Shown piece after piece: positions 5,676 to 34,100 of a stretch of 64,000 bases of DNA. The position numbers and the translations under genes are program-made. The first letter of the stretch is position 1. Each line of letters opens with the position of its first letter. The DNA is from an uncultured archaeon (lineage in GTDB: Archaea; Iainarchaeota; Iainarchaeia; Iainarchaeales; DTGL01). A model generated the notes under the pieces. That model did no database searches. It was not told the DNA's origin and worked only from the letters and a program-made list of their open reading frames with translations. The stretch lies in contig CAZKED010000001.1 of NCBI GenBank assembly GCA_964551725.1, positions 42,119-106,118 on the forward strand, written 5' to 3'.

Positions 5676-5986
5676 ATACATAAAAAATTCAGGAACTTTT
5701 TTTGCATTTTTTCTATTTCATTCCACAGAGAAACCCAAGTATTCGGCATTCTTTCAAGCGAAAGTATTTTAAATATAAAGACTATAATTTTACAGAGAAA
5801 ATTAAAGTGAAACATTACGAGTTTGTAGATTCTACAACAAAGCAAAGGGGTTAAATTTGAGTTTCACTAAGAGAGGCAAATTTTTAAGTGGACAGAATAG
5901 GCATACGCACAGCCCTGCTTTTTCTCAATCCTATAAGCTTAATAAAATAAAGAAAAATAAAAGAGGAGTTTAGGAGGTAATTTGAA

Positions 5987-8900
5987 ATGAACTGCAAAGG
6001 TGCCGAGAAAAATTCCAAGAACGCGTTAACCAACTTCAAAGGAGAGAGAAGCCCGCCGGGGTTTTCCCAAACAAAACGTTTATTGCTCTTTGCAGTCCTC
6101 TTTACCTCTTTGCTCCTAGCCATCGGCACCGCCTCGGCAACCTTCAGGGTTCGTGGGGACTTCCCGGACACAGGTTTGAACTACAGGGTTGAAGCATATG
6201 ATACGGCACAGGCGAACATGTGCGACGGAACACCCGACAACCCGGGAGTGGATGTAAACTATTTCAGTTCAGTATATGCCGCGGGAGACAGCTCATATGA
6301 TGACGATGACGACTATGACGAAACTTCAGGCAGCGACCTTGGGGGGGCTACTCTCGTATACTTCTACCTCTGCGGTCCCGGCGGAAACGCCGCGGCAAAG
6401 GTTGTTGAATTCACAAAAGTGGTGAACGATGGAGACGACCTGGAAATAGACATTGGTTATGTGAACGGTGGGGGGAACACTCACAACAATCTGACAGGAG
6501 ACTACGTGTTCGTGTGCAGCGCTTACGGCGGCTACCTGCTTAGCAGCGTGAACAAGCAGCCAACCGACGGAGAGGGCTACACCCAGTACTTCTATATTGA
6601 CAAGAACTCTGTCGGCACTGACGCGGACAACCCCATTGATACAGCGTATGTTTTCTTCGACAACGACACAACCAATCCCTGCACATGGGATGATTCAAAA
6701 ATGGCGGGAAGGGCAATTGACTTGAACGCCTCCACTCCGGACAACTTTGGCGTTTATGCAACATACGAGCCGGACCAGTTGTCTTCGGGAGACACCCACA
6801 TGGTTTTGAGGGACGCGAACATTGCCGTTTACAATTCAAGCGGTAAAAACGTCGGACTTGCACACGTTGGCTCTTTCGCCGACGGGGACGGAACGCTTGT
6901 CGACTATAACATGTACTTCGACAACCCGGCTTCCGGGAACCTAACAATAGTTTTAACTCCGGACGGAACCCCTGTCTCCACAGCGCACAAAACAAACGTT
7001 TATAATGTTGACAGGACAATTTTTTCCGGAGGAGACTACGACTTTGTAGTGGACGTCAACGAAGCAACGGGAATTTCAACCGCGCTCAACAAAGTGCGGG
7101 TGAACATGAGCAAGGACACCGACGCTGTTTATTACCAGACAGTTCCCACAACAAGCGGGGCTACTAAAGTATACGACCTGTTTATTGACAACAACGGGAC
7201 TGGATGGGACGACATACAGTACATGATTGGCGACGTGAACGAATTCATTGCCAAAAGAAACCTGAGTTCTGAAACCGACAGGCCAATCGATGTGGCAAGA
7301 GTGTACGGTGAAACGGACGCAAACCTTGAATCGGGAGACGACATGATTGAAATTTACTCCGATTCAAACTGCGCGGATGCAAACATTTTGAATTCACAAA
7401 TAGAATACCCGACCGAAACTGCAGGGGGAAACGACTACAACCAGTTCTTTGATGTCAACGGAAAGGCAACATTTTACATGAAGATTAAAATGAGAGACGG
7501 AGCAAACGACTACAACACGTGCGGGAACGCATTCACACTCACAAGCCAAGAAGCCAACCAGGACATTACCGTTGATGTGACGGGAAAAGTGCCTGACGGA
7601 AACATTTCAGTTATAGCAGTAGACATTGACCAAGATGGAACGGACGATGCAAACACAGTCAATGTACATTCAGGCGTCTACCACGTGTTCAGTGTTACTG
7701 ATGCAACGCTAGATGAAAATGTTATATTTTACAATGGGCCTTATGCAAACGATACAGTAGAACTGACTAGAATAGAAGACCTCTCTACAGCGGGAACAAA
7801 AACAGTCAACGTTGCAATGGTTTCAGGAAGCACGCACACAATTCTCAACGACGGGGATGCAGAGGACATTATAACAATTCACAGCGACGGAGCCTGCACA
7901 ACGCTTTTGAGCAGCAAGAACGAAAACCCGCTTACGGCAAGAACGCCGGACTACAACCAGTACTATGAATCAAACGGGGACATCAACTACTACATTAAAG
8001 TGAACGCAAGGCGCAATGCAACAGACTACGTTTCCTGCATAAGGCTGGCCGGCTCGGGAAACGGCGCAGTTGACAATATCAACATTGACCAGGCAATTGA
8101 CGGAAACGCACCGGTTGACGTGCACAGGGTTGGAATCGACTGGACCACAGCAAATACAATCAACGACGTAAATTCGGATGTTGTTGGCACGGGCTTCCTG
8201 GCATTCACGCCATCGGCAAGCGCGGGGGCAGAAGCAAATATAAGGTTCTTCGACGCGAGCGGAAAACTCCTCCTGAGCAGGCAAAAGGATTTAAGTACAG
8301 GGGGAAAACAAGACATAAACGTTGCAAACGTGGGAGGAGACGCTCACACAGTGCTGGAACAGGGTTCGAGCACTATAGCCGTTTACAGTGGGTTTGACAA
8401 TACGACAGGCGCATTGTCAACGCTCGTGAGTTCCGAAACAGTTAACCCCGCGGATGCAGGAGGCGCTGACTACAACCAGTACTTTGAATACAGCGGCATT
8501 GACCAAAACTATTTCCTTAAAGTAACCGTTGTAAAGAACGGCGTTTCCTACGACACAAACGGAAACGTTTTCATGGTGGACAACACGCACTTTACGGGAA
8601 CAACATTCATTGACCACACCGATATGACAATTGACTTGACGGTCGACAAGGACGGAAATGTTACATCGGACATTCACAACGTGGGAATCGACTACAACCA
8701 GGACGGAGTAATGGAAGCATTCGCCCAAGTGCACGGAGGACAGTACCACTTGGTTGCACAGCCAGACGCTGACGGAGTGGACGTGAACTTCTACGACAGC
8801 GGGAGAAACAGCGTTTTCGGAACGAAAAGAGCAGCGCTTACCGCGGGAAACGTGAAAATCAACGTGAGCAAGGTTTCGGGAGAACTGCCGAGCGGGTTTG

Positions 8901-11900
8901 AGGGAGACAATGCCTACCTGCAGTTTGACACCAACACTTGCACAATTAACGTATACGGGGACTTTAACGCAGTTGCAGCCACCCTGACCGGCACTCCGGA
9001 CTACACGCTTTACTATGACGCAAACGGAACGGACTACAATGTTGTATTCTGCGACGACGATACGGCGGTGGCAAAGACTGAACTCTATGTTCCCTTTACC
9101 TCGGACTCAAACGGAAGCGTGAGCAGGATAATCAGCGCGGGAAAGGTTTCAGGAGAAGCGCACGCAGGCCTTGAGGGAGCAAACGGAAGGGTAAGGATTT
9201 TCTCGGATTCAAGCTGCACTGCGGGCAACGAAATAAGCACGCATATCGCTCCAACTACCGACGGAACCAACGCGGACTACAATATTTTCTTCTACTCTCA
9301 CATTGGCGCAGGCACTTACTATTTGCAGGCGGACAGGGCCTCAACATTCGCAACCTGTCAGTCATTCGACCTTGATGCGAACGGCGGAACAATGCCGTTG
9401 AACATTGATGTTGAAGTGGAAGGAGAGGTTCCCACGGGCGTTGGCAAAATAAGAACTGATGTGAACAGCGCTTTCACAGCCGACATTTCCGCAAACCAGT
9501 ACTACATTTACGCGGGAAAGGGAGATGCAAGCGATATAGTGTACTTCGAGGACGGCGGGGACACAGTCCTTTACAGGACAACGCAGGACATGTCGGGAAA
9601 CGTGGCAAGCCTCGACATTGGAAGGATTGACGGAAACCTGCACGCAAACATTAGCACGGACGACAACGTGCAGGTGTACAACGACGCTCACTGCGTTACA
9701 TTGAGGAGCAGCGAGGACGTGAACGTTGACACAGCGAACTCAAACGTTTACTCGCGCTACTTTTACTCCGATAACGCAGGCAACATTTTCCTCAAAGTGA
9801 GAGAAGGAAACTACAGGGAATGCATTTCTGTGGAAGAAGGAGACCAAAAGGCAACGATAAAAAACTATGATTTGAACTTTTTGGTTTACGGAAACCTCGG
9901 GGGAGACGTTAATGTAATAAAACTGGATTTGGCGCAGGACGGAACGGATGAAATAGACGCAAACATTGACGAAACAGCAACACCTAACACTTATAAAATC
10001 TACTTCGACGGAAAGGACGGAAACGCAACATTTGACATAAACTTTTATAACGTAGGAACCAAAAGGCTGCAATTAGCAGGAAAGGATGCAACAAGCGACC
10101 TGAACGTGCACGTCGGAAGGGTTGCAGGAGAAATGCACGCAAACGCGAGCGCGGGAGCAAACGATGCAGTCACGGTTTACGTTACCTCCGACTGCGAAAC
10201 AACGCTTGTAAGCAGCCAGACAGTCAATGCAACCGCTGCTGCCGGAGTCGACTACAGCCAGTACTTTGAGGGAGACGACACGGGCACATACTACGTGCAG
10301 TTGGCAAAAGACGGAAAGGCGAGAACATGCTCAAGCGGAATAACGCTCTCAAACCAAGAGAACACAAGCGTTGACTTCAACTATGAAATAACCGGAATAA
10401 TCCCGAACAGGGCATCGCTCGCAACAAAAGACATTAATGCAATAAAAGTCGCCAATTATATAGGAAGGGCGGTACAGCACGACTACAATATGTACGTTGA
10501 AGGGGAAGGCCTTACTGCAACTGAAACAATCGCGTTCTATGACGACAACGCGGCAACTGCAACACTGCTGCTTACGAGGACAAAGGACCTTTCAAGCGGA
10601 AACACTATTGACGTGAACGTTGCATACGTGAGCGGTCCGACTCACGCAATCCTGACCGCAACGGACGACATCAACGTGTGCAACATGGTTCCGGCGAGAA
10701 CCACCACAGCGCCGGGATACTTCGGCAACTGCGACGTGCCCGGATTCAAGGTAAGCAGCGAGGACAGCACGAATGCGAACGACTTCAATGTCTACTTTGA
10801 ATACGACGGCAACTCGACATACTTCCTTGAAATCGTGGACACCAACGTAAGCACAGACTACAATTCATACCATAAAATAAAGAATGCAACAAAGGGCGCA
10901 ATACTCTATGTTCCCTTGGACGGGGTGTTCAACGGAAAAGTAACGGAGGAATACGACACAAGCATTGGAATCGCGGATGCAAACGTTGAATTGAGGACAG
11001 GCGCTGACGGAACGGACTGGAACGCATACACTTTCACCGTGAGCGACGGAAACTATGCGGCATTCGGCAACACCCTTGCAGGCGAACAGGACTTCAGGTT
11101 CTCCAAAGCAGGATACATTACAAGGGACTGGTCAACGAACGCGGGACAAATGAAAGACCAGCAATTGTCAGCCACACTGGACACAAACCTGCCGTCAGGC
11201 GTATACGTAACAGTGGTGGATTCCGGAGGACAGCCCATTACGGACGCGAACGTTGCACTGCTGAGCGATGTTACAACCACGCCGCACACCGTGCTGACCG
11301 GCTGCGTAAAGCCATCAGGACGCTGTCAGAGGGACAGCAACAACTATGCAGGCGGAGTTTACACATTCTCGGGATTCACGCTGCCCGACGACATTGTAAT
11401 CAAGGTTTCAAAGCCGGGATACGAAACAGTGCTTGTCCCGGACTACAACGGAGGAACAGCAGTATACCACACCGTCACAAGTTCGAGCCAGTGGGCTCCA
11501 ACAATAACGTTCACTAACGTTGCCCCAGGCGCTGTTTCATTGAGAACTCCGCTGGACAACACATACGAGTCAACTACTACGCCCACACTTAAATGGTTCG
11601 ACTTAAACGTGGACGAAATAAACTACAAAGTGCAGGTGGACGACGACTTCAACTTCGGCTCAATGGCGGTGAACACCTACACCGGGGGAGGAAACATTGT
11701 CGCATACACCGTGCCTGCTGCAACGCTGGCCAACGGCTCAACCTACTACTGGAGGGTAAGAGCCTACGATGGAGTTAGCGATGGCGACTGGTCGGATATT
11801 AGGAGCTTCACGATTGACGGCACTGCCCCGGCTGCACCCACAATAGGAATCAACACAAACGAGGTATACGTAAACACAGTGTCAATAACGGTAACTGTTA

Positions 11901-14900
11901 CAAGCAACGGGGCATATTACTGCAGGTTAAGCAATGACGGAACAAGCTGGGCGGGCTGGCAGGACTACAATGGAGCGGACAAAAACTATCCCTGGACGCT
12001 CACAGCGGGAGACGGAACAAAAACGGTTTACGTTGCCTGCAAAAACAATGCGGGACTTGAAGCAAGCAATTCAGAAAACGTGGTACTCGACACAACCGCG
12101 CCGGACGGCGTGAGCATTGCAATAAACGACGGAAACCAGTTCACTACAAGCAGGGACATAACAATTGACGTTAACGCACTGAACGCAAAAACATGCGAGT
12201 ACAGCGTTGACGGAACAACCTGGGACACGGTGACAGACTGCAACACCGAAAACTTCAACACGCCGAACGACCTGCCGGCAGGAGACGGATTGAAAACGGT
12301 GTGGTTAAAGGCAACGGATGCCGTGGGAAACTTCACAACCGCAAGCGCTACAATAACACTGGACACTACAGCGCCTGACACAGCGCCAACGGCAACCGCA
12401 ACAGAGAGCGGCAACCAGATTGTTGTAACATGGACAGCCGGCTCTGACGCAACAAGCGGCGTTGACTATTACAACCTTTACAGGAAAACAAGCGACGGAG
12501 TCGCAAAAACGGACACATTCGTGGCAGGCGGACTGAAAGGGCAGTCATATGTTGACTCGCCGGGAGTCAGCGGAAACTTCTGGTATGCCCTGACTGCGGT
12601 GGACTACGCGGGAAACGAGTCGGCAATCGGCACGGATTATGAAGCAGCGGTCGACTTCAATGCGCCGACGGGAACAGTAATAGTAATAAACGACGGGAAC
12701 GATTACACTAGGAGCAGGAACGTCACAATTGACACCAACGCTTCGGGCGCAGACATCTGCGAATATTCAACAGACGGATGGGCAACCGTGGTAGCAATAA
12801 CCTGTGATTCAGTGAACACCGCGGTAACGCTGCCCGACGGCGAGGGAGTGAAGACTGTATCCTTCAAGGCAACCGATGCGAATGCAAACGTGACGAATGC
12901 CGCGGACACAATAATCTACGATGCTACTGCACCAAACACCGAGCCGGTTGCAACCGCAGCATTATTGAACAACACTATAAGGCTCAACTGGACTGCTGCG
13001 GCAGACGCACTGAGCGGAATAAAGGAATACAGGGTTTACAGGAACAGGGGCGCAGCGCCAACACTGCACTCCGATTACATGCTTGTCGGCGGCGTTACAG
13101 GGCTTGTTTACACGGACCAGCCCACTTCAACAGGCACGTATTACTATAAGATAGTCGCAGTGGACAATTCGGACAACAACTCGGACGGAAGCAATACGGT
13201 GAACCAAGCGGTTGACTTTAACGCTCCAGTCGGAGTGAGCATTACAATAAACGACGGAAACCAGTACATTACCGACAGGACAAAAGCAACAATTGACGTT
13301 AACGCATTGGGAGCGGACAACTGCCATTACAGTACCGACGGAGGAGCAACGGAAACACCAATAGCGTGCACCGCTGCTGATACAGCGATAACGCTGCCTG
13401 CGGGAGACGGATTGAAGACAGTAATATTCTACGCAAGGGACTCAAACAACAACGCGACAACGGCAACGGACACAATAAAGCTTGATTCAACAAACCCGGC
13501 GAACGTTACAGGAACGCTTGCAGTTGTTTCAGGACAGCAGATAAAGGTTACATGGAACCAGGGAACGGACGCCACAAGCGGCGTTGACTACTACAAGATT
13601 TACAGGGATACCACAAGCGGGTTCGCTATTGCAGCCAACAAATATCTAGGGGAAACAAAGAACGTGTATTACTGGGACGCGCCGGGAAGCGGAACATACT
13701 ACTACAAGGTCACTGCAGTTGACTACGCCGGAAATGAAGGCACCACAACCGATCAGAATCACGCTGAACTCGACAAGACAGCACCCCAGACATCATTGCT
13801 CAGCATAAACGGGGGAGCATTGTACACTAATTCCGTAAACGTAACGCTGGCTTTGTTCAGTTCGGACAACAATGCTGTAGAACACTGCTGGGCAAGCAAT
13901 GATGGCAATACGTGGACAAGCATTGGAACCGTGGCAAGCTATGCCTGGGCTCTAAGTGCAGGCAATGGAGTAAAGTCAGTGTTCTACGTTTGCGAGGACT
14001 ATTCCGATAACAACTCTGCATTGAGCACCAAAACAATAATGCTTGACGCAACCGCGCCGAGCACCCCGGTTGCAGTGTGGCCGCTGGCTGCCGCGGTGTC
14101 AGGAGAAACATTCATGTGGGACTGGAACGCGTCAGTGGATGCCAATGTACCGGACGGGAACAGCGGAGTGCACCACTATTACGTGCAGTTGACAAGGAAC
14201 GGGACATTCCTGCAGGACGAAAACGTTTACGACACGCACTTGACGCTTGTGGGACGCACTCCCGGAGTTTACGTGCTGACAGTTGCCGGCGTGGACAACG
14301 CAGGAAACCAGTCGGGAACGCTGACGTTCTCCAACGTAACGGTTGATTTGACAATTCCAAGCGCTGCACCCACCAACCCGTTGCTCAATACGGGAGAGAG
14401 ATTCAAGTGGACAAACAGCACAAGCGTTGACTTCAACTTTACTGCAACGGACGACACGGCTGTTTCAGCATGCCTGATAACACCCTACAAGAACAAAGTA
14501 GCACAGACAGCGGTGGCAGTTGTTCCGGTAGGAGGAGTGTGCGGTTACACTTTAACCAGCCTGTCAAGCGGGGATTCAGCATATGCTACAATTGACGTTA
14601 ACGACAGCGTGGGCAACTGGAGCGGCAGCACAGTGAACACAGCAACCTACATTGTTGACACCACAGCGCCTGGAGTCGCAATAATCTCCCCGACATCAAG
14701 CTCAATACTCAGCGACACAACTCCAACGGTTAGATTCCACGCTTGGGACAGCTACGAGGAAAGCGACGTGAACACGGACTCGTTCGTGATTGACACCAAC
14801 GGAGTGACAAGGGTTGTTACAATAACGTGCGACAACAACGCTCCCAACAGCTGGGACTGCAACTTTGATGTATCGCCGGCATTCGCTGACCCGAGCACGG

Positions 14901-15409
14901 ACCAGAATCTTGAAGTAACAGTGTACGACAGGGCAGGAAACAGTTCCACTGCAACAGTAACGGACCTGAACTTTGACTCAAGCGATTACATAACAGTGGT
15001 AGATGTCAACGCGCACAAGTCAAGGGGAACAAATGCCAATACCTATGCAACTGGATGGCAGTGGGACTTCAACATCATTCTCGGAACAGCTTCGGGCAAC
15101 GACAAGAACAAGATAAGGTTCAAGCTGGCAAACTTCACTACTAGTTCAAACTATGCTGGGCTGAAAACGCTCGCGGTTGACGGAAACGCGAGAATGGTCT
15201 ACGACGCCAACGTCGGCGGAGCACAGTCTACGCAGACGTACAACATACAGACAGACTACAACGCTCAGAGAACAGTATATGCACTTTGGGACCACAACCC
15301 GAATACCGCGGGAATAGACGCAAACTTCTACATACAGGTGAAAATCCCAAGCCCCATGGCTTCGGGAACCTACAGGTCAACCTACGGCATAAGGTCGTAT
15401 AGCAGCTAA
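5987..15409 (+). CDS. Giant secreted surface protein (3140 aa) with Cys-pair modules, Ig-like and fibronectin-III-like repeats. Candidate adhesin or surface-layer component.
   Basis: A single unbroken ORF. A GGAGG ribosome-binding site lies 9 nt upstream. The N-terminal signal/anchor is LLLFAVLFTSLLLAIGTASA|TF. The N-terminal half repeats a module of roughly 170 aa ([IV]Y-S-D..C....DYNQYF....Y.[LK]V....C plus a VPDGN...DLS.G...NVA.VSG.H domain) about seven times. The C-terminal half alternates LDTTAP/NAP-bounded roughly 100-aa domains with FN3-like domains (LNWTA...YYYK.TAVD). There is no C-terminal TM. Confidence 0.8.
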   Translation: MNCKGAEKNSKNALTNFKGERSPPGFSQTKRLLLFAVLFTSLLLAIGTASATFRVRGDFPDTGLNYRVEAYDTAQANMCDGTPDNPGVDVNYFSSVYAAGDSSYDDDDDYDETSGSDLGGATLVYFYLCGPGGNAAAKVVEFTKVVNDGDDLEIDIGYVNGGGNTHNNLTGDYVFVCSAYGGYLLSSVNKQPTDGEGYTQYFYIDKNSVGTDADNPIDTAYVFFDNDTTNPCTWDDSKMAGRAIDLNASTPDNFGVYATYEPDQLSSGDTHMVLRDANIAVYNSSGKNVGLAHVGSFADGDGTLVDYNMYFDNPASGNLTIVLTPDGTPVSTAHKTNVYNVDRTIFSGGDYDFVVDVNEATGISTALNKVRVNMSKDTDAVYYQTVPTTSGATKVYDLFIDNNGTGWDDIQYMIGDVNEFIAKRNLSSETDRPIDVARVYGETDANLESGDDMIEIYSDSNCADANILNSQIEYPTETAGGNDYNQFFDVNGKATFYMKIKMRDGANDYNTCGNAFTLTSQEANQDITVDVTGKVPDGNISVIAVDIDQDGTDDANTVNVHSGVYHVFSVTDATLDENVIFYNGPYANDTVELTRIEDLSTAGTKTVNVAMVSGSTHTILNDGDAEDIITIHSDGACTTLLSSKNENPLTARTPDYNQYYESNGDINYYIKVNARRNATDYVSCIRLAGSGNGAVDNINIDQAIDGNAPVDVHRVGIDWTTANTINDVNSDVVGTGFLAFTPSASAGAEANIRFFDASGKLLLSRQKDLSTGGKQDINVANVGGDAHTVLEQGSSTIAVYSGFDNTTGALSTLVSSETVNPADAGGADYNQYFEYSGIDQNYFLKVTVVKNGVSYDTNGNVFMVDNTHFTGTTFIDHTDMTIDLTVDKDGNVTSDIHNVGIDYNQDGVMEAFAQVHGGQYHLVAQPDADGVDVNFYDSGRNSVFGTKRAALTAGNVKINVSKVSGELPSGFEGDNAYLQFDTNTCTINVYGDFNAVAATLTGTPDYTLYYDANGTDYNVVFCDDDTAVAKTELYVPFTSDSNGSVSRIISAGKVSGEAHAGLEGANGRVRIFSDSSCTAGNEISTHIAPTTDGTNADYNIFFYSHIGAGTYYLQADRASTFATCQSFDLDANGGTMPLNIDVEVEGEVPTGVGKIRTDVNSAFTADISANQYYIYAGKGDASDIVYFEDGGDTVLYRTTQDMSGNVASLDIGRIDGNLHANISTDDNVQVYNDAHCVTLRSSEDVNVDTANSNVYSRYFYSDNAGNIFLKVREGNYRECISVEEGDQKATIKNYDLNFLVYGNLGGDVNVIKLDLAQDGTDEIDANIDETATPNTYKIYFDGKDGNATFDINFYNVGTKRLQLAGKDATSDLNVHVGRVAGEMHANASAGANDAVTVYVTSDCETTLVSSQTVNATAAAGVDYSQYFEGDDTGTYYVQLAKDGKARTCSSGITLSNQENTSVDFNYEITGIIPNRASLATKDINAIKVANYIGRAVQHDYNMYVEGEGLTATETIAFYDDNAATATLLLTRTKDLSSGNTIDVNVAYVSGPTHAILTATDDINVCNMVPARTTTAPGYFGNCDVPGFKVSSEDSTNANDFNVYFEYDGNSTYFLEIVDTNVSTDYNSYHKIKNATKGAILYVPLDGVFNGKVTEEYDTSIGIADANVELRTGADGTDWNAYTFTVSDGNYAAFGNTLAGEQDFRFSKAGYITRDWSTNAGQMKDQQLSATLDTNLPSGVYVTVVDSGGQPITDANVALLSDVTTTPHTVLTGCVKPSGRCQRDSNNYAGGVYTFSGFTLPDDIVIKVSKPGYETVLVPDYNGGTAVYHTVTSSSQWAPTITFTNVAPGAVSLRTPLDNTYESTTTPTLKWFDLNVDEINYKVQVDDDFNFGSMAVNTYTGGGNIVAYTVPAATLANGSTYYWRVRAYDGVSDGDWSDIRSFTIDGTAPAAPTIGINTNEVYVNTVSITVTVTSNGAYYCRLSNDGTSWAGWQDYNGADKNYPWTLTAGDGTKTVYVACKNNAGLEASNSENVVLDTTAPDGVSIAINDGNQFTTSRDITIDVNALNAKTCEYSVDGTTWDTVTDCNTENFNTPNDLPAGDGLKTVWLKATDAVGNFTTASATITLDTTAPDTAPTATATESGNQIVVTWTAGSDATSGVDYYNLYRKTSDGVAKTDTFVAGGLKGQSYVDSPGVSGNFWYALTAVDYAGNESAIGTDYEAAVDFNAPTGTVIVINDGNDYTRSRNVTIDTNASGADICEYSTDGWATVVAITCDSVNTAVTLPDGEGVKTVSFKATDANANVTNAADTIIYDATAPNTEPVATAALLNNTIRLNWTAAADALSGIKEYRVYRNRGAAPTLHSDYMLVGGVTGLVYTDQPTSTGTYYYKIVAVDNSDNNSDGSNTVNQAVDFNAPVGVSITINDGNQYITDRTKATIDVNALGADNCHYSTDGGATETPIACTAADTAITLPAGDGLKTVIFYARDSNNNATTATDTIKLDSTNPANVTGTLAVVSGQQIKVTWNQGTDATSGVDYYKIYRDTTSGFAIAANKYLGETKNVYYWDAPGSGTYYYKVTAVDYAGNEGTTTDQNHAELDKTAPQTSLLSINGGALYTNSVNVTLALFSSDNNAVEHCWASNDGNTWTSIGTVASYAWALSAGNGVKSVFYVCEDYSDNNSALSTKTIMLDATAPSTPVAVWPLAAAVSGETFMWDWNASVDANVPDGNSGVHHYYVQLTRNGTFLQDENVYDTHLTLVGRTPGVYVLTVAGVDNAGNQSGTLTFSNVTVDLTIPSAAPTNPLLNTGERFKWTNSTSVDFNFTATDDTAVSACLITPYKNKVAQTAVAVVPVGGVCGYTLTSLSSGDSAYATIDVNDSVGNWSGSTVNTATYIVDTTAPGVAIISPTSSSILSDTTPTVRFHAWDSYEESDVNTDSFVIDTNGVTRVVTITCDNNAPNSWDCNFDVSPAFADPSTDQNLEVTVYDRAGNSSTATVTDLNFDSSDYITVVDVNAHKSRGTNANTYATGWQWDFNIILGTASGNDKNKIRFKLANFTTSSNYAGLKTLAVDGNARMVYDANVGGAQSTQTYNIQTDYNAQRTVYALWDHNPNTAGIDANFYIQVKIPSPMASGTYRSTYGIRSYSS
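7250..10420 (+). repeat. About seven divergent tandem copies of a two-domain protein module of roughly 170 aa (DYNQYF Cys-pair domain plus VPDGN/DLS domain) inside the 3140-aa gene
   Basis: DYNQ[FY][FY]-type motifs recur near 7434, 7948, 8467, 9000, 9272, 9750 and 10250. The repeat is at the protein level (about 30% identity) and is not a DNA-identical repeat. Confidence 0.55.
11470..14700 (+). repeat. Alternating Ig-like (INDGN.Y...R..TIDVNA.GA..CEYS.DG) and FN3-like domain repeats inside the 3140-aa gene
   Basis: At least four copies of the (L/F)(D/N)(T)TAP...INDGNQ[FY]T.SR..TID.NA...C.YS.DG...LP.GDGLKTV block, interleaved with W..TA..D..SG...Y.VYR...Y.K.TAVD blocks. Confidence 0.55.
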
Positions 15410-15431: not shown

Positions 15432-17075
15432 ATGAATAAACTCAGGGCTTCGGCCCTTTTATTTTTTATTTTAATTCTTGGAATAATGTTCATCAACGCA
15501 GCGGAAATAACAGGCACTATTGGCCCTGACGAAAACACGCAGAGCGGCTTTACCGGAGATAGCGGACCGGAAGGGGAAAATTTACTTACAAACGGCACTG
15601 CCTGCGATACAAACTCGCAGTGCAATTCCGGGCACTGTGCTTCGGACTACGATGGAGTGGGAAAATGGTGTGCTGCAGTGAATTACTGCGTGCACAACGG
15701 CACAATCACTTATTCCAACGGGAGTACGCTTTGCTCTAATGCAAGCACGCAGCAGACATGCACTAACGGAACGTGGATTGCGACAATCTGCACCGGAAGC
15801 TGCACAGGAGGAAAATGCGTTGCGGCCACCCCCACACCGACTCCTTCTGCGCCTCCAAGCGGGGGACAGCAACAGGGACCCGGTGGAGGAGCAGCGCCGG
15901 GGGCATCGCCGAGCCCCAGCCCGAGCGCAACCGCCACTCCGTCGCCCACTCCAACGCCGGAAGAGGAAACCGTGCTCGAGACCTCGAAAACGGGAACCGT
16001 GACCGCGGGGGACGTTGACAAGGTCTTGGATGAAGCCGGGGTAACCGATCCCGAGGAGAAGAAAAAGGCGCAGGTTGCAACAGGGCTGGAATACAAAAAA
16101 GAAATGAAGGTTGTGAAGAAAACAGACCCTGAAACAGGCGAGGTAACCTACGAATCGCAGTTCACCATTACGGTCAGGAACCCGACGGACAAAAAACTCA
16201 CCAACTTCTGCGTAATTCAGAGAATTCCCCCCGAAACAGGGGCAACAGCCGAAACATTCAGTTCCCCTTACGAGTATTCAATACTCTCCGAGGAACCACT
16301 GATAGTGCAGTGGTGCATAGGAGAACTCGGACCGCATGAATCCGTGAAAATAAAGTTCACAATAATGGAGCAGTTGACAGAGGAGGAATTCGACCTGTTT
16401 TCCGCCATAGGAACAGGCATAGAGGAAGAAGTGATAGTTGTAGGCAAGGGAAACGTGAAAGTCACGCTTTATGACTCGGAAACCGGCGCAGTCCTCGCGG
16501 TGCCGGTGAACGTAAAAATTTTCAGTGAAGACGGAGAGCTTGCGGCGGAAAAAATCGCCGCTCAGGGAAGCGTTGAATTCTTAGCCCTCAGCCCAGGAAA
16601 TTATTGGATTGAAACAGAGAAAACAGAAGAATACGAGGCGGGAGAATCAAGCACTTTTAAAGTGAAAGCGGACGAAACCGCGGAAGTGTCAATAAGCCTA
16701 GAGCCAGTGGAAGAGGTAATAATCCCGCCCGAGGCGGACTTGAGCGGCTTGATGTGGCTTATCATTATAGTGGCGGTGCTCGGTTTGCTGTACTATTTCA
16801 GGAAGCCGATTCTCGGAATGTTCGCGGCAAAGCCGGCTGCAAGGAAGGCGAAGACGCCGCTCGAAGAAGCCGCTGAGGAAGCGGAAAAGGCGGCTCCGGC
16901 AGCGCCTGCAGTAGAAGCCGAAAAACCAGCCAAACCGCCCAAAAAGAAGAAGAAAAAGAAAAGGAAGAAGCGAAAGAAGCGCAAGAAGAAAAAGAAGAAA
17001 AAGCCGAAGAAAGAGGAAAAGCCGGCCGAGCCCGCTCCCGTCATAGGCGGCGAGGGCACGGAATTCGGGGAATGA
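15432..17075 (+). CDS. Secreted Cys-rich type-I membrane protein with a roughly 100-aa polylysine cytoplasmic tail
   Basis: An AAGGAG ribosome-binding site precedes the start. The Sec-type signal is LLFFILILGIMFINA|AE. The Cys-rich N-terminal domain reads CDTNSQCNSGHCA...CTGSCTGGKC. This is followed by a Pro/Thr/Ser linker, a TM (LMWLIIIVAVLGLLYYF), and the tail ...KPPKKKKKKKRKKRKKRKKKKKKKPKKEEK. Confidence 0.7.
   Translation: MNKLRASALLFFILILGIMFINAAEITGTIGPDENTQSGFTGDSGPEGENLLTNGTACDTNSQCNSGHCASDYDGVGKWCAAVNYCVHNGTITYSNGSTLCSNASTQQTCTNGTWIATICTGSCTGGKCVAATPTPTPSAPPSGGQQQGPGGGAAPGASPSPSPSATATPSPTPTPEEETVLETSKTGTVTAGDVDKVLDEAGVTDPEEKKKAQVATGLEYKKEMKVVKKTDPETGEVTYESQFTITVRNPTDKKLTNFCVIQRIPPETGATAETFSSPYEYSILSEEPLIVQWCIGELGPHESVKIKFTIMEQLTEEEFDLFSAIGTGIEEEVIVVGKGNVKVTLYDSETGAVLAVPVNVKIFSEDGELAAEKIAAQGSVEFLALSPGNYWIETEKTEEYEAGESSTFKVKADETAEVSISLEPVEEVIIPPEADLSGLMWLIIIVAVLGLLYYFRKPILGMFAAKPAARKAKTPLEEAAEEAEKAAPAAPAVEAEKPAKPPKKKKKKKRKKRKKRKKKKKKKPKKEEKPAEPAPVIGGEGTEFGE
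16941..17015 (+). repeat. Imperfect AAG/AAA/AGG low-complexity tract encoding the polylysine tail
   Basis: The sequence aaaaagaagaagaaaaagaaaaggaagaagcgaaagaagcgcaagaagaaaaagaagaaaaagccgaagaaagagg was read directly. Confidence 0.6.
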
Positions 17076-17194
17076 GCAAATTCCCTGCTTCTTTTTTTAT
17101 TTTCTGTTTTTTTAAGTAGTTGGCGCTTTGCTGAACTGGCATTAGCGTTAAAAGAATTTTCTTTCCCTATTTTTCCGCTGAGAGAGTTGATTGA

Positions 17195-18988
17195 ATGCGG
17201 TTAAAGATTGAGAGGGAAAAGTGCGATTTATGCGAGTCAGCGCAGTGCATGAATTCGTGCCCGCTTTTTTTGGAAAAGAATGCGCTGAACTGCATCCACT
17301 GTAACCCGGAAGAAGCGGAGTGCAGGAATGCCTGCAGACGGAATGCCTTTTTTGAAATTGCCGAGGGCATTCTTTCAATCGACGAGGAAAAGTGCGATGG
17401 ATGCGGGGAATGCGTTAAAGCCTGCCCCTACAATGCAATTGTGCTGGTGAACGGAAAGGCGAGGAAGTGCAATCTCTGCGCCGAAAACGATTTCCTTGTT
17501 TCCTGCGCGGAGGGATGCGCGCGCGGGGCAATTTCAATCCGCTGGGAGAGGAAGGAAACCAGGGCAGCGGAAAAGGCATTCGGGTGGAGGGTTTTTCCGG
17601 TCAAGGAAAGGAACATGCGGGTTCTGAGGCATGGAAACAATGCGAGGATTGTCAAGTGCAACGGGAAAAAATGGTACTTGCTGGATTCAATGCCCGCGCT
17701 GACAAAGCAGGAAGCCGTGCTCCTCAGGAAAATACTGCGGGAATTCCAGGAAGGCAAATGGGAAAAGGGAAATCTGGAAGAGGCGGTGGAAAGGCATTGT
17801 TCCACGAATTCGATTGAACTGGGCGAGGAGCAGAAGGACTATTTTCTCGGTGTTCTGGGTTCTTCGGTGTACGGCTTCGGGCCTGTTTCCGTGCTCTTGG
17901 AGGACGAGGAACTCGAGGAGATTGCTCTCGCTGGATTGGGAAAATCGAATCCGTTGAGGGCATTCCACCGCGATTTCGGGTGGCTTGACTGCAATGCATA
18001 CTTTTCAAGCGGCAAAGCCGTGAGGAACCTGGTAAATAAAATGATTGGAAAGATGGAGAGACGGCTTTCCACTGCAAACCCGAGGGTGAACGGAATGCTC
18101 TCCGACGGAAGCAGGCTGAATGCAACACTGCCGCCTGTTTCGGTGGGAATGCCTTCTTTTACTATAAGAAAGTTCCACACTCAAAAAATGACTCCACTGG
18201 AGCTTGTGGGCAACAAAACATTCAGCGCGGAATTAATGGCTTTCCTTTGGCTTTCAATGCTCAGCGAGTGCTCCGTTCTCATAGCGGGAAACACGGGAAG
18301 CGGCAAAACAACCACGCTCAATGCCCTGTTTTCTTTTGTTCCAAGGGATGAAAGGATTGTCGTGGTGGAGGAAACCCCTGAAATGCATTTCCCGCACGCG
18401 CACTGCGTGAGGCTTAACACTCTCGAAAGCAGGAACATTAAAATGCAGGACCTCATCGCGGATTCGCTGAGAATGCGCCCGGACAGGATAGTAATAGGCG
18501 AGGTAAGGGAAAGGGGGGAAATAAAGGCGTTCGTTGACACGCTGCTGGCAGGGCAGGGAAAGGGCAGCTATGCGACAATGCACGCCCTGAGCGCAAGGGA
18601 AGCAGTTACAAGAATGAAGGCTTTCGGGGCAAGGGACGATGATTTGAAGGGAGTGGACCTTTTCATCGTGCAGAAAAGGTGGACTGAAACAGACCTGGAA
18701 AGGAACGAGCGGAGGGAAAAGAGGAGAATCACCGAAGTGGCTGAACTCGGGGAAAAAGGCAGGGCAAAGCGCCTTTTTTCACTTGACTTCCGAAGGGACA
18801 GAATAAAGAGGCATTCTTTTGGAAAAAAGCCCGTGGAAAAAATGAAAATCGCCTTCGGGCTTTCAAAGGGGGAAATAGAGGGGAAAATAAAGAAAAGGAC
18901 GCTTGCACTGGAGGAATGGAAATCCGAGAGACTTTGCCTTAAAGAGTTCTTTGAGAGGGCGTGTGCTTTCAGGGAGGATGGAAAATGA
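17195..18988 (+). CDS. FlaI/TadA/VirB11-family secretion ATPase with an N-terminal poly-ferredoxin-like (4x Cys-cluster) domain
   Basis: The N-terminal 110 aa carry CDLCESAQCMNSCP, CIHCNPEEAECRNAC, CDGCGECVKACP (CxxCxxCxxxCP) and CNLCAENDFLVSCAEGC. The ATPase core carries FTIRKF, Walker A LIAGNTGSGKTTTLNAL, Walker B RIVVVEETPE, and His-box RPDRIVIGEVRERGEIKAFVDTLLAGQGKGSYATMHA. Confidence 0.85.
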   Translation: MRLKIEREKCDLCESAQCMNSCPLFLEKNALNCIHCNPEEAECRNACRRNAFFEIAEGILSIDEEKCDGCGECVKACPYNAIVLVNGKARKCNLCAENDFLVSCAEGCARGAISIRWERKETRAAEKAFGWRVFPVKERNMRVLRHGNNARIVKCNGKKWYLLDSMPALTKQEAVLLRKILREFQEGKWEKGNLEEAVERHCSTNSIELGEEQKDYFLGVLGSSVYGFGPVSVLLEDEELEEIALAGLGKSNPLRAFHRDFGWLDCNAYFSSGKAVRNLVNKMIGKMERRLSTANPRVNGMLSDGSRLNATLPPVSVGMPSFTIRKFHTQKMTPLELVGNKTFSAELMAFLWLSMLSECSVLIAGNTGSGKTTTLNALFSFVPRDERIVVVEETPEMHFPHAHCVRLNTLESRNIKMQDLIADSLRMRPDRIVIGEVRERGEIKAFVDTLLAGQGKGSYATMHALSAREAVTRMKAFGARDDDLKGVDLFIVQKRWTETDLERNERREKRRITEVAELGEKGRAKRLFSLDFRRDRIKRHSFGKKPVEKMKIAFGLSKGEIEGKIKKRTLALEEWKSERLCLKEFFERACAFREDGK

Positions 18989-19755
18989 TTCATTTTCCTT
19001 TTTCCGCGGGGAAATTTTTCGGGGGGAAAATGGGACTGCTTCGCGCTGTTCTTGCCTCGCTTTTCCTCTGGTTTCTTTTCTCCCTTGTTTTTCCCGGAAT
19101 TGTAGAAGGAATCCTGTTTTTTCTTTTCTCCCTTTCCGGAATCTGCCTGTTCTCATTTTACGCTGCGGGGAGAGCGCGCAGGAGGCATGCCGAGAGAGTG
19201 AATGGAAGCATTCCCTTCTTTCTCCTGGGGCTCAGGGTAAAGCTTTTGCTTGGGAAAAGCATGGAGGAATGCCTCAGGGAACTGGGTGTTAAAGGAAAGG
19301 GCGCTTTTTATTCGGAGCTCGGGAAAACCGTGAGGGAATTCGAATGCCTGGGCGCGAGCGTTGAGGATGCTTTGCTGCATCTCGCGGAGAGGGTTGATTC
19401 CATTCCACTGAAGCGCGCTGTTTCCTGCATAGTGCAGCTGAGCGAGCAGGGCTTCTCTGCCGGGGAACTTAACTCGCTGGGCATACTTGCAAGGGAACTG
19501 CTCGCCGAGGAAAAGGCGAAAATAAGGGAATTCTCTGGGAAAATCGTTGTTTTTTCCCTTATGTTTGTGGCTGTTTCCGCTGTTTTTCCGGCACTGTTTC
19601 TCGCGTTTGTTGCCGTGGGCTCTCTTTTTCTCGAAATAGGGTTGAGCCCGCTGCAGGCGGTCGTTGTTCCTGTCGTGCTCTTTCCGCTCATTGACCTGGG
19701 GGCAATGCTTTTCATTCGGGAAAAAATTCCTCTCATCGAAGCGGGCGGGGCGTGA
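18985..19755 (+). CDS. T2SS-F-domain membrane protein (TadB-like half-platform)
   Basis: Its ATG overlaps the ATPase stop (ATGA), and an AGGGAGGA ribosome-binding site lies upstream. The topology is N-terminal TM helices, a cytoplasmic helical domain (LGASVEDALLHLAERV...GELNSLGILAREL), then two C-terminal TM helices. Confidence 0.6.
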   Translation: MIHFPFSAGKFFGGKMGLLRAVLASLFLWFLFSLVFPGIVEGILFFLFSLSGICLFSFYAAGRARRRHAERVNGSIPFFLLGLRVKLLLGKSMEECLRELGVKGKGAFYSELGKTVREFECLGASVEDALLHLAERVDSIPLKRAVSCIVQLSEQGFSAGELNSLGILARELLAEEKAKIREFSGKIVVFSLMFVAVSAVFPALFLAFVAVGSLFLEIGLSPLQAVVVPVVLFPLIDLGAMLFIREKIPLIEAGGA

Positions 19756-19760
19756 ATTAA

Positions 19761-20702
19761 ATGAATGCACAGGTTTTTGGAATGGCGTCCGGAATGCTGC
19801 GGGCTTTTCTTTCAGGAAAAAAATACCTGGGACTGGAAAAGGAATTCAGGGAAGAGAGAGGCGAATCACTTCAGAAATTTCTTTCGCGGTGGTTTGCGCG
19901 GGGCGTTGTTTCCGCGCTTGTTTCTTGCGCTGCATTTCTTTTTTTTGAAATGCCTTTTTTATTTTTTGCGCTTGCCGCTGTCCTGCCTGTTGCCCTGCCT
20001 TTAGGCGCGCTTTCCCTGCAATTGTTTCTCTTTGAAAGGGAAAGGGGAAAAAAGGAGGAAGCCGTGCCCGCACTGCTTCTCCAGGCTTCCATTTTTCCAC
20101 CGAAAACGCCTGTATCGAAAATGATGGAATGTTTTGCGCTTGGGGAAAAAAATGCCTTTGGAAAGGAGTTCAAGAAAGCGGTAAGGGAAGTAAAGCGCGG
20201 GGCAAGCGCTGCGGAAGCGCTGGAAGGAATGAAAGCCAGGAACAGGGGAAGGTTTTTCCGCGAGGCAGTTGAAATGCTTTTGCTCGCGGAGGAAACGGGA
20301 ATTGAAATGAATTCTGTGCTGAGGGAGAAAGCGGAGGAAATAATCGAAGTGCAGGCCATTCTGAGAGAGCGTCTCTCGCTTCTTTCAATACAAAAAGCGA
20401 CGCTTTTGCTCGGCGGGGGAGTAATAGTGCCTTTTATTCTAGGTCTCCTGAGCGGGATGGTGCGCTCCTTTGACTTGGGGGAGTTTTCGCAAATGCTTTC
20501 AGGCAGCGTTGCGTGCAGGCAGGAAATGCTTAATGCAGCGGTTTTTGCAAACCAGGTGTTTGTTGTGGAATACGCGCTCGTTTCCTCCCTCTTCCTTTCC
20601 TTTCTGGAGGGAAAGCCCAGGAAAATTTTTCCTTACGCTTTGGTTCTTGTTCCTTTGGGTTTTGTTGTTTTTTCCCTTGCAGCGCGGGCTCCCGTAATCT
20701 GA
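19761..20702 (+). CDS. T2SS-F-domain membrane protein (TadC-like half-platform)
   Basis: The ORF lies 5 nt after the previous gene. It carries AEALEGMKARN..FFREAVEMLLLAEETGIEMNSVLREKAEEI between TM segments, which is typical of the GspF/TadC cytoplasmic domain. Confidence 0.6.
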   Translation: MNAQVFGMASGMLRAFLSGKKYLGLEKEFREERGESLQKFLSRWFARGVVSALVSCAAFLFFEMPFLFFALAAVLPVALPLGALSLQLFLFERERGKKEEAVPALLLQASIFPPKTPVSKMMECFALGEKNAFGKEFKKAVREVKRGASAAEALEGMKARNRGRFFREAVEMLLLAEETGIEMNSVLREKAEEIIEVQAILRERLSLLSIQKATLLLGGGVIVPFILGLLSGMVRSFDLGEFSQMLSGSVACRQEMLNAAVFANQVFVVEYALVSSLFLSFLEGKPRKIFPYALVLVPLGFVVFSLAARAPVI

Positions 20703-30050: not shown

Positions 30051-30821
30051 TTAAGGTGCAGCGGAACAGTTGAGGTATTCCTCTGATGTCAATTTACTGC
30101 CGTCAGGAGCCTGGGGCAAGGGCTTTGCGGGCCAGAACAAAAGGTCAACATATGCTTGGAAGTTGTGCTGCGTGAATTCTTCCGGTCCTTCCTCTTTGAG
30201 CTTTCTGAAGTTCACCAGAACGCTCGGGGGCTTGTTTATTTCGCCGACTTTAAGGAATAGAAGGCGGTCCAGGTCGTTGTCCGTCTTGATTTCCCCGCTT
30301 TGCTTGGGAAAGCAGTAATAGGTTTTTCTTTCCCCGGAAAATTCGTGCTCGCCTGTCTGCGTGTACTCGGCTGTGTAAAGCAGCACGAAAACGAAGGCAT
30401 TCTTCTCGTCGGCGGGAATCCAGTCCTCGTTGTCGAACTGCTGCGGCGGGATGTAAATGTAAAAGAAGTAATCGTATGCCTGCTTCAGGGGATCCATTAC
30501 CGTGCCCACTGAATCCCTGAGCCTGTCCTGCAGTCCCCCGCTCAAAGCGGAGTCGCTCGCGTAATCCTCCTTTATCATGGCAAGGAGGTAGTCGACTTCG
30601 CTTGTGTCCTCTATATTCTCGCCTGGAACTCTCGGAACGCTGGAGTAAAGAATGGTTTGAAGCGCGGAAGCGGCGTAGTCAGCACCGTAAAGGCTTTCGA
30701 GGTTCTTGTTGACGTTTATGCCGAAAGTGCCGCTTATTGAAAACATGAATGCTGAAAGCCCTGCAACAATGAGCAATAGGAACAATGCGTCTGTTATCGC
30801 CGCCTGCCCCCTGCAGTTCAT
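30051..30821 (-). CDS. Type IV pilin-like protein with a class-III signal peptide (MNCRG|QAAITDALFLLLIVAGLSAFMF)
   Basis: The internal ATG at 30821 is preceded by GGGGGA. A basic residue plus Gly is followed by a hydrophobic stretch of more than 20 aa. This is the last gene of the pilin array. Confidence 0.55.
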   Translation of the reverse strand: MNCRGQAAITDALFLLLIVAGLSAFMFSISGTFGINVNKNLESLYGADYAASALQTILYSSVPRVPGENIEDTSEVDYLLAMIKEDYASDSALSGGLQDRLRDSVGTVMDPLKQAYDYFFYIYIPPQQFDNEDWIPADEKNAFVFVLLYTAEYTQTGEHEFSGERKTYYCFPKQSGEIKTDNDLDRLLFLKVGEINKPPSVLVNFRKLKEEGPEEFTQHNFQAYVDLLFWPAKPLPQAPDGSKLTSEEYLNCSAAP

Positions 30822-30868
30822 TCCCCCACTGTGCCTGAATTCTGGCACCGCTGTTCTGCGGAATGCCT

Positions 30869-31366
30869 TCAGTCCCACAGCACCACCACCAAAAGCAGGG
30901 GTCTTATGGCAAACCCGCTTCTGACGCTTGAGTCCTGGAAAGCGAAGGGAAACTTTTTCACCATAACTTCTGTGTCGTGGCTTATTTCCCTCTCCATATT
31001 GGAGCATTCCAGGAGTTCGCCGTCTATTTCGAAAATGCCCTCGTCCTCGTTCACGAATTCCATGACGTCAAAGGTCTGCTCCAGGGGTAGTTTTACTGCC
31101 CCGACCTTGTAGTAAACGCTTATGACCTCGCTTATGCCGCCGCACAATTCGAAGAATTCGTCCGGCGTATCCATGTAGCGGTCGCCGCGCAGCCTGTCGC
31201 TTATTTCAAGGAGGCTTATCGCGTTGCTGAACTCGCGCTGCCCGCTGTCAAGTCTCTGGAAAGTTGTCGTGAATGTTGCGAAAAAAATTACAAGAGCGAA
31301 AAGTATGGGAATGAGGCTCGGCAGGTCGTCTCCTATCGGTCCAATGAATCCTTTCCTGCTTTTCAT
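30869..31366 (-). CDS. Pilin-array protein with leader MKSRKG followed by FIGPIGDDLPSLIPILFALVIFFATF. Possible atypical class-III signal.
   Basis: The ATG at 31366 is preceded by GGAGAGAAGG. A KG motif precedes the hydrophobic segment, but Asp-Asp intervenes, so the assignment is tentative. Confidence 0.4.
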   Translation of the reverse strand: MKSRKGFIGPIGDDLPSLIPILFALVIFFATFTTTFQRLDSGQREFSNAISLLEISDRLRGDRYMDTPDEFFELCGGISEVISVYYKVGAVKLPLEQTFDVMEFVNEDEGIFEIDGELLECSNMEREISHDTEVMVKKFPFAFQDSSVRSGFAIRPLLLVVVLWD

Positions 31367-31404
31367 TCTTCCGCCTTCTCTCCTTTTTTCCCGTTTTGAT
31401 TCTT

Positions 31405-32585: not shown

Positions 32586-32821
32586 AAAGAAAACCGTTAC
32601 TTCCCTATATTGCCCGCGGTCCGCGTCACTATTTCCTGCGAGCCCTGGAACATCGGCTTGATGAAGGCAATGAGCACCAGTGCGACAATCACGAGCACCA
32701 AGAGGAAATAAACCGAGGACCACTCCCCTTGCGCTTTCTCTTCACGAAAAAATCCAACCGCGCCGAGCATAGGCATCCATTAAAAGAAAGGGAAAAGGAA
32801 TATTTAAATGTTACTCGCCCG

Positions 32822-33376: not shown

Positions 33377-33406
33377 CAGTTTCACCTCAGCATAAAAAGC
33401 AAAAAC

Positions 33407-33420
33407 GCAAAAGCGTTTGC
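33407..33420. promoter_or_regulatory. Near-palindrome GCAAAAGCGTTTGC between the TATA-like box and the pilin start codon. Candidate operator or leader hairpin.
   Basis: The dyad symmetry was read directly. The element was duplicated together with the gene (compare 34101-34114). Confidence 0.35.
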
Positions 33421-34064: not shown

Positions 34065-34100
34065 CCACATTCACCTCTGAATTCAGCGCATAAGCACAGC

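Follow-up and report, generated by a model that had tools for sequence, protein, structure and literature searches.

Bacterial fibrillar adhesins, for example the Gram-positive proteins with CnaB/SdrD-B repeats and the RTX adhesins SiiE, LapA and MpIBP with their Ca2+-rigidified BIg extenders, are very long exported proteins composed of tens of tandem beta-sandwich domains. Linear strings of many domains are typical of such fibrillar adhesins rather than of lattices. Giant surface proteins also occur in archaea of the DPANN group, the nanohaloarchaeal SPEARE proteins being an example, and the members of this group are believed to attach to other cells or to depend on them. To our knowledge, the molecules that make this cell contact are almost unknown. 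Here we describe a gene for a protein of 3140 amino acids (aa), below called the giant, which lies on a 64,000-nt stretch of DNA from an uncultured archaeon (contig CAZKED010000001.1, positions 42,119 to 106,118; this whole stretch is called the window). The giant is very probably a real, exported beta-sandwich protein of an Iainarchaeota (DPANN) archaeon. Taken as a whole, the evidence leads us to favour, with reservations, a reading in which it is a Sec-exported, non-enzymatic surface fibre that is displayed via the membrane protein encoded next to it (p547) and that serves attachment.

The giant is encoded by a single open reading frame (ORF) of 9.4 kb that starts with ATG; its position and length had been given exactly by a model-made first-pass annotation of the bare sequence. 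The gene is preceded by an AT-rich spacer of 344 nt with a GGAGG motif near its end. The parts of the gene are as follows.

5973..5977, plus strand: GGAGG, candidate ribosome-binding motif 9 nt 5' of the ATG, read from the sequence
5987..15409, plus strand: giant gene, 3140 aa, pI 4.2, the sole hydrophobic segment being the signal peptide
5987..6139, plus strand: predicted Sec-type signal peptide (aa 1-51), from hydropathy and family N-termini
6140..6715, plus strand: conserved head (aa 52-243), two degenerate copies of the first, transthyretin-like module domain with extra Cys
6716..10963, plus strand: N-terminal array of a two-domain module, from blastp chunks, unit alignment and profile
10904..11566, plus strand: mid region (aa 1640-1860), a pair of CarboxypepD_reg-like sandwiches with two invariant, paired Cys in the second
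11564..14365, plus strand: C-terminal array, in which five FN3 domains alternate with as many INDGN-type domains that are presumed Ig-like, from blastp, jackhmmer and profiles
14366..14896, plus strand: further beta-sandwich (Big-like) domains (aa 2794-2970), with weak Big_3_3, Big_13 and Ig_J matches only
14897..15406, plus strand: family-specific C-terminal domain (aa 2971-3140), proposed docking/anchoring domain

Together these parts amount to about 35 beta-sandwich domains in series. The hydrophobic core of the signal spans aa 29-55, and an A-S-A site abuts the conserved mature start F-R-V-R-G-D. Throughout the family an AxA-like site stands immediately before a conserved [FT]-V-x-G-D, which points to a Sec-type export signal with cleavage by signal peptidase I. 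A class III signal was looked for and not found, the N-terminus reading ...TKR-LLLF with no G/A at position -1 and without the '[KR]GQ' motif. Hydropathy and motif scans of the giant detected no means of self-anchoring (a second hydrophobic segment or transmembrane (TM) helix, LPxTG or a C-terminal PGF) and zero GG.G.D motifs of the RTX type, and a Pfam scan detected no protease, nuclease or toxin domains. Halophily was rejected as the cause of the giant's acidity: cytoplasmic proteins have a pI of about 9, so the acidity belongs to the surface protein and is no sign of halophily.

The N-terminal array was recognised by comparing the giant with itself (blastp, 120-aa chunks against the whole protein). 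This yielded 38 off-diagonal matches between aa ~383 and ~1650 with E-values from 1e-4 to 8e-18, at a period of ~172 aa and with chunk matches at 24-38% identity, which is far beyond chance. Nine DYNQYF-type anchors are present at aa 306, 483, 655, 828, 1005, 1097, 1254, 1422 and 1599. Unit alignment resolves the array into eight complete units of two domains each and a half unit (aa 943-1034) made of the first domain only, with a unit period of 157-177 aa (471-531 nt).

6716-7246, plus strand: unit 1
7247-7762, plus strand: unit 2
7763-8281, plus strand: unit 3
8282-8812, plus strand: unit 4
8813-9088, plus strand: half unit
9089-9559, plus strand: first unit after the half unit
9560-10063, plus strand: second unit after the half unit
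10064-10594, plus strand: third unit after the half unit
10595-10963, plus strand: fourth unit after the half unit

The first-pass annotation had described about seven copies of a two-domain module of ~170 aa with a Cys pair, located between ~7250 and 10420. The repeat, its two-domain make-up and the Cys pair hold; the number of copies and the extent of the array have to be revised upward to the values given here, and two degenerate copies in the head (aa ~53-240) are to be added. A profile built from the array units finds a weak module copy in the head at aa 148-209, and in jackhmmer searches the whole head (aa 52-243) proved related to the first module domain and cross-matched array modules. 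It was found at the N-terminus of about 28 retrieved family proteins, or 33 in all when weaker matches to array modules are included, and is the most widely conserved region of the family.

Searches of Pfam and NCBIfam gave nothing above cut-off for the whole giant, the module included, and a PDB sequence-profile search with the module gave no match, in agreement with the earlier view that the module cannot be placed in a named family; a literature search also found no description of it. The same annotation had proposed HMM and structure searches with one repeat unit. An exhaustive HMMER search of 1.84 billion cluster representatives with a profile of the nine units returned 43 proteins at E ≤1e-3 and 35 at E ≤1e-10. 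About 37 are judged true relatives, nearly all of 1500-6644 aa and with 5 to 28 or more module copies. A k-mer-prefiltered protein search found nothing with aa 421-942 and two fragments with an alignment of 52 family modules, results that are uninformative because the query's own protein, which is present in the collection, was not returned. As a side observation, negatives of such searches appear untrustworthy for giants that, like this one, resemble low-complexity sequence and are rich in Thr, Asp and Asn.

An AlphaFold2 model of the unit at 7763-8281, built on the 52-module family alignment, is all-beta with a pLDDT of 91.3 and a pTM of 0.86 (an earlier model from the nine internal repeats alone reached pLDDT 67 and was used as a lead only). 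The second ~60-70 residues match small Ig-like domains (Bap, SiiE BIg, FN3). The structure search thus yielded a confident fold but no significant counterpart, as Foldseek of the module model against the PDB gave nothing below E 0.027. According to the model, the module consists of two sandwiches, a divergent transthyretin-like one and, after it, a small Ig-like one; neither fold is new, and it is the sequence family that is undescribed. Positions C45 and C92 of the unit are both Cys in 49 of the 52 family modules, both are lost in two and one is lost in a single module. Such joint presence and absence is the pattern expected of a disulfide, which probably staples the transthyretin-like sandwich. 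In the second domain, one loop has the family consensus D-x-D/N-x-D-G-x-x-D. DxDxDG is an established type of Ca2+-binding loop, and to judge from this consensus the loop probably binds Ca2+; in the giant the canonical form is kept in two or three of the eight second domains, such as DIDQDG (aa 546) and DYNQDG (aa 902).

The family can be defined by a signal peptide, the head, at least five Cys-pair modules, the CarboxypepD_reg-like mid region and a C-terminal GW.W.F...KIP...Y domain. The giant has all of these features and is collinear with the family proteins P0002, P0004, P0006, P0007 and P0008 and with the giants of two of the loci compared below (L002 and L091). Another member, P0001 (6644 aa, 28-36 module copies), ends within a module, and a further sequence, P0012, overlaps its C-terminal part and continues with CGDG-type Cys repeats, a Thr/Gly-rich linker, a p547-like domain and a TM helix, so the full-length protein probably comprises ~8000 aa.

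Scanned alone, the mid region reached 38.5 bits with PF13620 (CarboxypepD_reg) and thereby passed the gathering threshold of 32.3. Jackhmmer found it in 24 retrieved family proteins besides the giant. A scan of genome contigs with a mid alignment of five sequences found none, its single pattern being one that would miss most of the family.

The C-terminal repeat zone (aa ~1880-2790) has a period of 187 aa, with up to 55% identity and E-values down to 3e-31 in blastp. The alternation of INDGN blocks with FN3-like blocks that had been noticed in this half is real, with five of each: the INDGN/INGG/INTN blocks start at aa 1955, 2046, 2234, 2421 and 2607 and the FN3-like blocks cover aa 1860-1950, 2140-2229, 2326-2415, 2514-2602 and 2704-2793. 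The three central copies with the 187-aa period are the most alike, at 42-51% identity. The designation of this region as an Ig/FN3 array stands for its FN3 part at the profile level, as a profile of the five FN3 blocks matched FN3 domains of neuroglian (E 1.8e-5) and chitinase A1 (E 9e-5) in the PDB; with PF00041 (fn3), the whole giant scored 20.5 bits, under the cut-off of 25. The INDGN block, for which no Pfam or PDB match was found, is only presumed to be Ig-like. Residues 2794-2970 are related to the preceding repeats according to jackhmmer.

The giant terminates in a domain with the signature GW.W.FN ... GNARMVYDAN ... WDHNP.T..IDANFYIQ.KIPS ... Y, which is 43-65% identical across six close relatives. 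Compared with the C-termini of ten distant members it gave an hhalign probability of 98.7% and an E-value of 3.5e-16, and its conservation extends to both subfamilies. Neither Pfam nor the PDB gave a sequence match for this domain, and a metagenome scan with it returned two loci.

In a sequence that comes from metagenome assemblies, a repetitive gene may be an artefact of collapsed, expanded or chimeric repeats, which the first-pass annotation had named as the finding that would overturn its description. The C-terminal array, moreover, differs from that of the closest orthologue by about three units of 187 aa. We nevertheless regard an artefact as extremely improbable, and no sign of collapse or chimerism was seen. 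The DNA copies are 60-72% identical over stretches of less than 100 nt, Tandem Repeats Finder detected nothing longer than 26 nt in the giant's DNA, and copies this divergent could not be confused by assemblers. In addition, an identical 3140-aa product is called on five public contigs, and the locus was recovered in JGI, ENA and two Logan assemblies that derive from different sources.

Comparison with relatives also speaks against an artefact. The orthologue nearest to the giant, a protein of 2577 aa, comes from a metagenome-assembled genome (MAG) of Candidatus Iainarchaeum (locus L002); it is 66% identical and collinear over aa 1-2316, the half unit included, and relatives of 29-38% identity align with the giant in one high-scoring segment pair across 2300-2800 aa. 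Each N-terminal unit is nearer to its positional orthologue than to its neighbours. The pairwise identities of the nine units amount to 12-33% with no trend from N to C, so neither the identity gradient nor the ongoing expansion that had been considered earlier is seen. Since the units are positionally orthologous in relatives of 29-66% identity, the sequences indicate that the N-terminal array is old and fixed. The L002 orthologue lacks ~560 aa of the C-terminal array, corresponding to three units of 187 aa; together with the 42-51% identity of the central copies, this suggests that the copy number of the C-terminal array has changed, though not recently.

Similar to SlaA and SlaB of the Sulfolobales, the giant is accompanied by a smaller exported protein with a C-terminal TM anchor.

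15432..17075, plus strand: p547, 547 aa, starting 22 nt after the stop codon of the giant; proposed membrane anchor
17092..17113, plus strand: T-rich tract directly after the p547 stop codon, read from the sequence

The T-rich tract may be an archaeal terminator that closes a transcription unit of the giant and p547. From N to C, p547 consists of a signal peptide, a Cys-rich head of ~105 aa with 10 invariant Cys, a Pro/Thr linker, a DUF11-like domain, a CnaB/CarboxypepD_reg-like domain that matches GBS52 in the PDB (E 1e-4), a TM helix at aa ~429-462 and a poly-Lys tail. A class III signal was considered for p547, as 'KLRA-S' would fit, but the AxA site, the C-terminal TM helix and the poly-Lys tail argue otherwise.

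Eleven loci around orthologous ATPases or giant C-termini were compared. Six of them carry a module-bearing giant (the window, L002, L082, L083, L084 and L091), and in all six a Cys-headed p547 of ~520-570 aa lies directly 3' of it. In L091, the giant and p547 stay adjoined while a PIN toxin-antitoxin pair is located between p547 and the ATPase gene. Four loci (L085, L086, L092 and L093) have kept the ATPase, T2SSF and PAC2 genes without a module-bearing giant; p547-like proteins are found in the first three of these and are headless, consisting of the DUF11-like core and the TM helix only. The two components are joined in the family member P0012, in which a module array is fused to the p547 core domain (E 5e-16), Cys-rich repeats, a TM helix and a charged tail. 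Another family member, P0014, has a TM helix at its C-terminus. The P0012 fusion, the tight gene spacing and the co-occurrence of the Cys-rich head with the giant (six of six loci, as compared to none of the three p547-like proteins in loci without it) lead us to read p547 as the membrane anchor of the giant.

In the arrangement that we propose, the giant would be exported by the Sec route as a rigid string of ~35 beta-sandwich domains, in the order of the two-domain head, 8.5 modules, two CarboxypepD_reg-like domains, the variable FN3/Ig array and the C-terminal domain. As it has no anchor of its own, it would be held at the surface by p547. The Cys-rich head of this type I membrane protein, borne on a Pro/Thr stalk, would be the docking site for the giant, most likely for the C-terminal domain of the latter. 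The conserved N-terminal head would then stand roughly 100-150 nm out from the cell, if the string is extended and a domain accounts for ~4 nm, and the fibre would function in attachment to a surface, a matrix or another cell. For the docking of the giant to p547 we see about equal chances of its being right or wrong, and an adhesive function, suggested by likeness to known fibres, is an evenly balanced proposition as well.

Several points weigh against this arrangement. No recognisable ligand-binding domain was found in the giant with Pfam, NCBIfam or the PDB, neither the head nor the C-terminal domain having a match there to an adhesive or ligand-binding domain, and adhesion is therefore argued by analogy only. 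The conserved head could equally be the end that docks to p547. Loci without the giant keep p547-like proteins beside the ATPase cluster, and p547 may thus belong primarily to that cluster. All loci with the giant come from one fairly narrow lineage (the ATPases are 49-68% identical where both genes are present), so the adjacency of the giant and p547 could be inherited rather than selected. Finally, only a minority of the second domains of the giant retain the canonical DxDxDG loop.

The two-gene layout, in which a large exported protein is encoded ahead of a stalk protein that has beta-sandwich domains and a membrane anchor, could also mean that the giant is the main protein of a surface layer (S-layer) or sheath, forming a lattice that is anchored by p547 as SlaA is by SlaB. 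The composition of the giant, which is acidic, rich in Thr and Asn and contains 47 N-x-S/T sequons, is compatible with such a role. Enrichment in N-glycosylation sequons had to be rejected, however, as 50 are expected from the composition, and PDB profile searches gave no match to SlaA or SlaB. The window encodes at least five other exported proteins of giant size, so that this one does not stand out as the single lattice protein, and related genomes in which the remainder of the region is preserved do not have the gene, contrary to what one would expect of an indispensable wall protein. A linear string of 35 domains, furthermore, is typical of fibres and not of lattices. We consider an S-layer role quite unlikely and prefer a surface fibre displayed by p547.

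The genes around the giant and p547 are in part metabolic. Upstream of the giant are genes for transaldolase, a split transketolase and ribulose-phosphate epimerase, and p547 is followed downstream first by the T-rich tract and a gap of 119 nt and then by the genes for a Fer4-T2SSE ATPase, two T2SSF proteins and PAC2.

17195-18988, plus strand: ATPase, 2x[4Fe-4S]-ferredoxin fused to T2SSE
18961-19755, plus strand: half-size T2SSF membrane protein
19761-20702, plus strand: second half-size T2SSF membrane protein

No type I secretion system (T1SS) genes were found near the giant, its neighbours being the pentose-phosphate genes, p547, the T2SSE ATPase and T2SSF. The ATPase shares 68% identity with its counterpart in 'Candidatus Iainarchaeum archaeon Meg22_1618_Bin_64', and further relatives are annotated as Candidatus Diapherotrites or Iainarchaeum, a DPANN lineage. 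The ferredoxin-T2SSE fusion is widespread in MAGs of Diapherotrites/Iainarchaeota, in which PAC2 nearly always follows it and a p547-like membrane protein is usually found upstream.

The ATPase cluster (17195..20702) is syntenic with the giant, the link not being obligate. The order giant, p547, ATPase, T2SSF, T2SSF, which is kept in the window, L002, L082, L084 and L091, allows for the alternative that the giant is the cargo or a component of an adjacent type IV pilus-like machine, formed by the ATPase and the two T2SSF proteins, that secretes, assembles or moves the fibre. Such a machine would agree with the presence of a different, unrelated giant of 3190 aa at the same upstream position in locus L003, the ATPase of which is 41% identical, with the p547-like proteins that adjoin the ATPase even without a giant, with the lack of pilin genes in the cluster itself (17195-20702) and with earlier observations, made in DPANN genomes, of surface proteins that are associated with archaeal type IV pilus loci (PMC6393860). 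However, the cluster occurs without a module-bearing giant in the four loci mentioned above, and since synteny is just as strong for housekeeping genes (PAC2 and riboflavin), the order of giant and ATPase may be inherited and not functional. The T-rich tract and the 119-nt gap part p547 from the ATPase, and the toxin-antitoxin pair of L091 has its place there. The signals of the giant and p547 are, moreover, of the Sec type, whereas the true pilins of the genome (30051-34640) carry a class III '[KR]GQ' signal. A pilus-like machine acting on the giant is therefore judged unlikely, and a Sec-exported fibre held by p547 accounts better for these observations.

A separate observation concerns the giant of L003 (68-9640; single-amplified genome AM-311-L14), which has a LamG/ConA-like N-terminus, is devoid of the DYNQYF module and lies directly upstream of the orthologous Fer4-T2SSE ATPase gene. 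Genes of giant surface proteins may have a hot spot in front of this ATPase gene.

The window contains further genes of surface structures. A complete-looking archaeal type IV pilus locus is present on the minus strand (30051-39459).

37171-39459, minus strand: T2SSE ATPase of the type IV pilus locus, 762 aa (side observation)
34641-37190, minus strand: polytopic membrane protein of the type IV pilus locus, 849 aa (side observation)
34188-34640, minus strand: small ORF with class III signal, '[KR]GQ' then a hydrophobic helix
33516-34070, minus strand: small ORF of the same type
32822-33385, minus strand: small ORF of the same type
32028-32723, minus strand: small ORF of the same type
30051-31007, minus strand: ORF of the same type, the class III-signal ORFs numbering at least five

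None of the small ORFs of this pilus locus (30051-34640) has a Pfam match. A 1505-aa protein with an N-terminal signal, a C-terminal TM helix and no Pfam match is encoded at 24224-28741 on the minus strand. By size and position it has Pfam-less counterparts of 1555, 1468, 1543, 1512, 1600 and 1587 aa on the opposite strand (in L084, L085, L086, L091, L093 and L094, respectively) and one of 1520 aa on the same strand in L092; if these are related, conservation of the gene extends further than that of the giant. The plus strand of the window encodes four additional exported proteins of giant size.

37-2262, plus strand: C-terminus of a 2200-aa protein (DUF7743, Big_7; side observation)
40294-48624, plus strand: 2776-aa exported protein (side observation)
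50620-57831, plus strand: 2403-aa exported protein with four CarboxypepD_reg domains (side observation)
57897-64000, plus strand: ORF for an exported giant that runs past the end of the window (side observation)

Neither the DYNQYF module nor the C-terminal domain was found in any of these four. No tRNA or Rfam features were found in the window.

Rare, lineage-restricted giant surface fibres carry a domain type that is missing from the domain databases, and for the DYNQYF module a confident structural model now exists. New are the module family, which is extremely rare and has no entry in Pfam or NCBIfam, the C-terminal domain, the anchor protein with its Cys-rich head and the fusion of fibre and anchor; the natural gene fusion lends support to a two-gene arrangement of fibre and anchor that is open to testing. 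The practical value lies in the annotation of the domain family, the C-terminal domain and the anchor protein and in a candidate attachment factor of Iainarchaeota. No general concept is altered, as beta-sandwich giants on the cell surface are common among bacteria and small-genome archaea, and to a specialist the giant comes as no surprise, being a variation on the well-known giant fibres or adhesins of cell surfaces and no system of a new kind. A bolder proposal, which we regard as rather doubtful, is that Iainarchaeota mount interchangeable giant fibres on a membrane stalk by means of an undescribed non-covalent docking pair, formed between the giant's C-terminal domain and the Cys-rich p547 head, and that the ferredoxin-fused ATPase and its T2SSF platform could belong with it to a redox-sensing attachment organelle on the DPANN surface. 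If true, the pair would work somewhat like cohesin-dockerin or SLH anchoring.

Similar to the bacterial fibrillar adhesins, the giant is acidic, has a DxDxDG-type loop consensus in its second domains and includes one array of variable copy number; it has an export signal, as judged from its sequence, and a stalk of tandem beta-sandwiches. Unlike these adhesins it is archaeal, lacks a surface anchor of its own, carries a Sec signal and has no RTX nonapeptides, LPxTG motif or T1SS genes, which, together with the lack of matching Pfam domains, means that it is not a member of those families. Its N-terminal repeats are ancient, positionally fixed and 12-33% identical instead of near-identical, it has no recognisable tip domain, and its anchoring is apparently delegated to a separate membrane protein. 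Compared with the CarboxypepD_reg/prealbumin (transthyretin-like) domains of Pfam, the module has no Pfam match, possesses the family-specific DYNQYF strand and Cys pair and is always coupled to a second small sandwich. SlaA and SlaB (PDB 8qox) share the layout of a large exported protein beside a smaller, anchored beta-sandwich protein. No sequence relationship to them was found, though, and p547 has a Cys-rich head and a Pro/Thr linker instead of a coiled coil, whereas the giant is a linear domain string that is patchily distributed among relatives. The giant proteins of other DPANN archaea and of ultra-small bacteria (SPEARE, Omnitrophota, Vampirococcus) are likewise very large, secreted, multidomain and clustered in small genomes. 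Their domain content differs, and the likeness is one in kind with no homology claimed. In organisms of this kind, such giant proteins are discussed as factors of host or surface interaction (PMC10266531, PMC10066038, PMC8080830).

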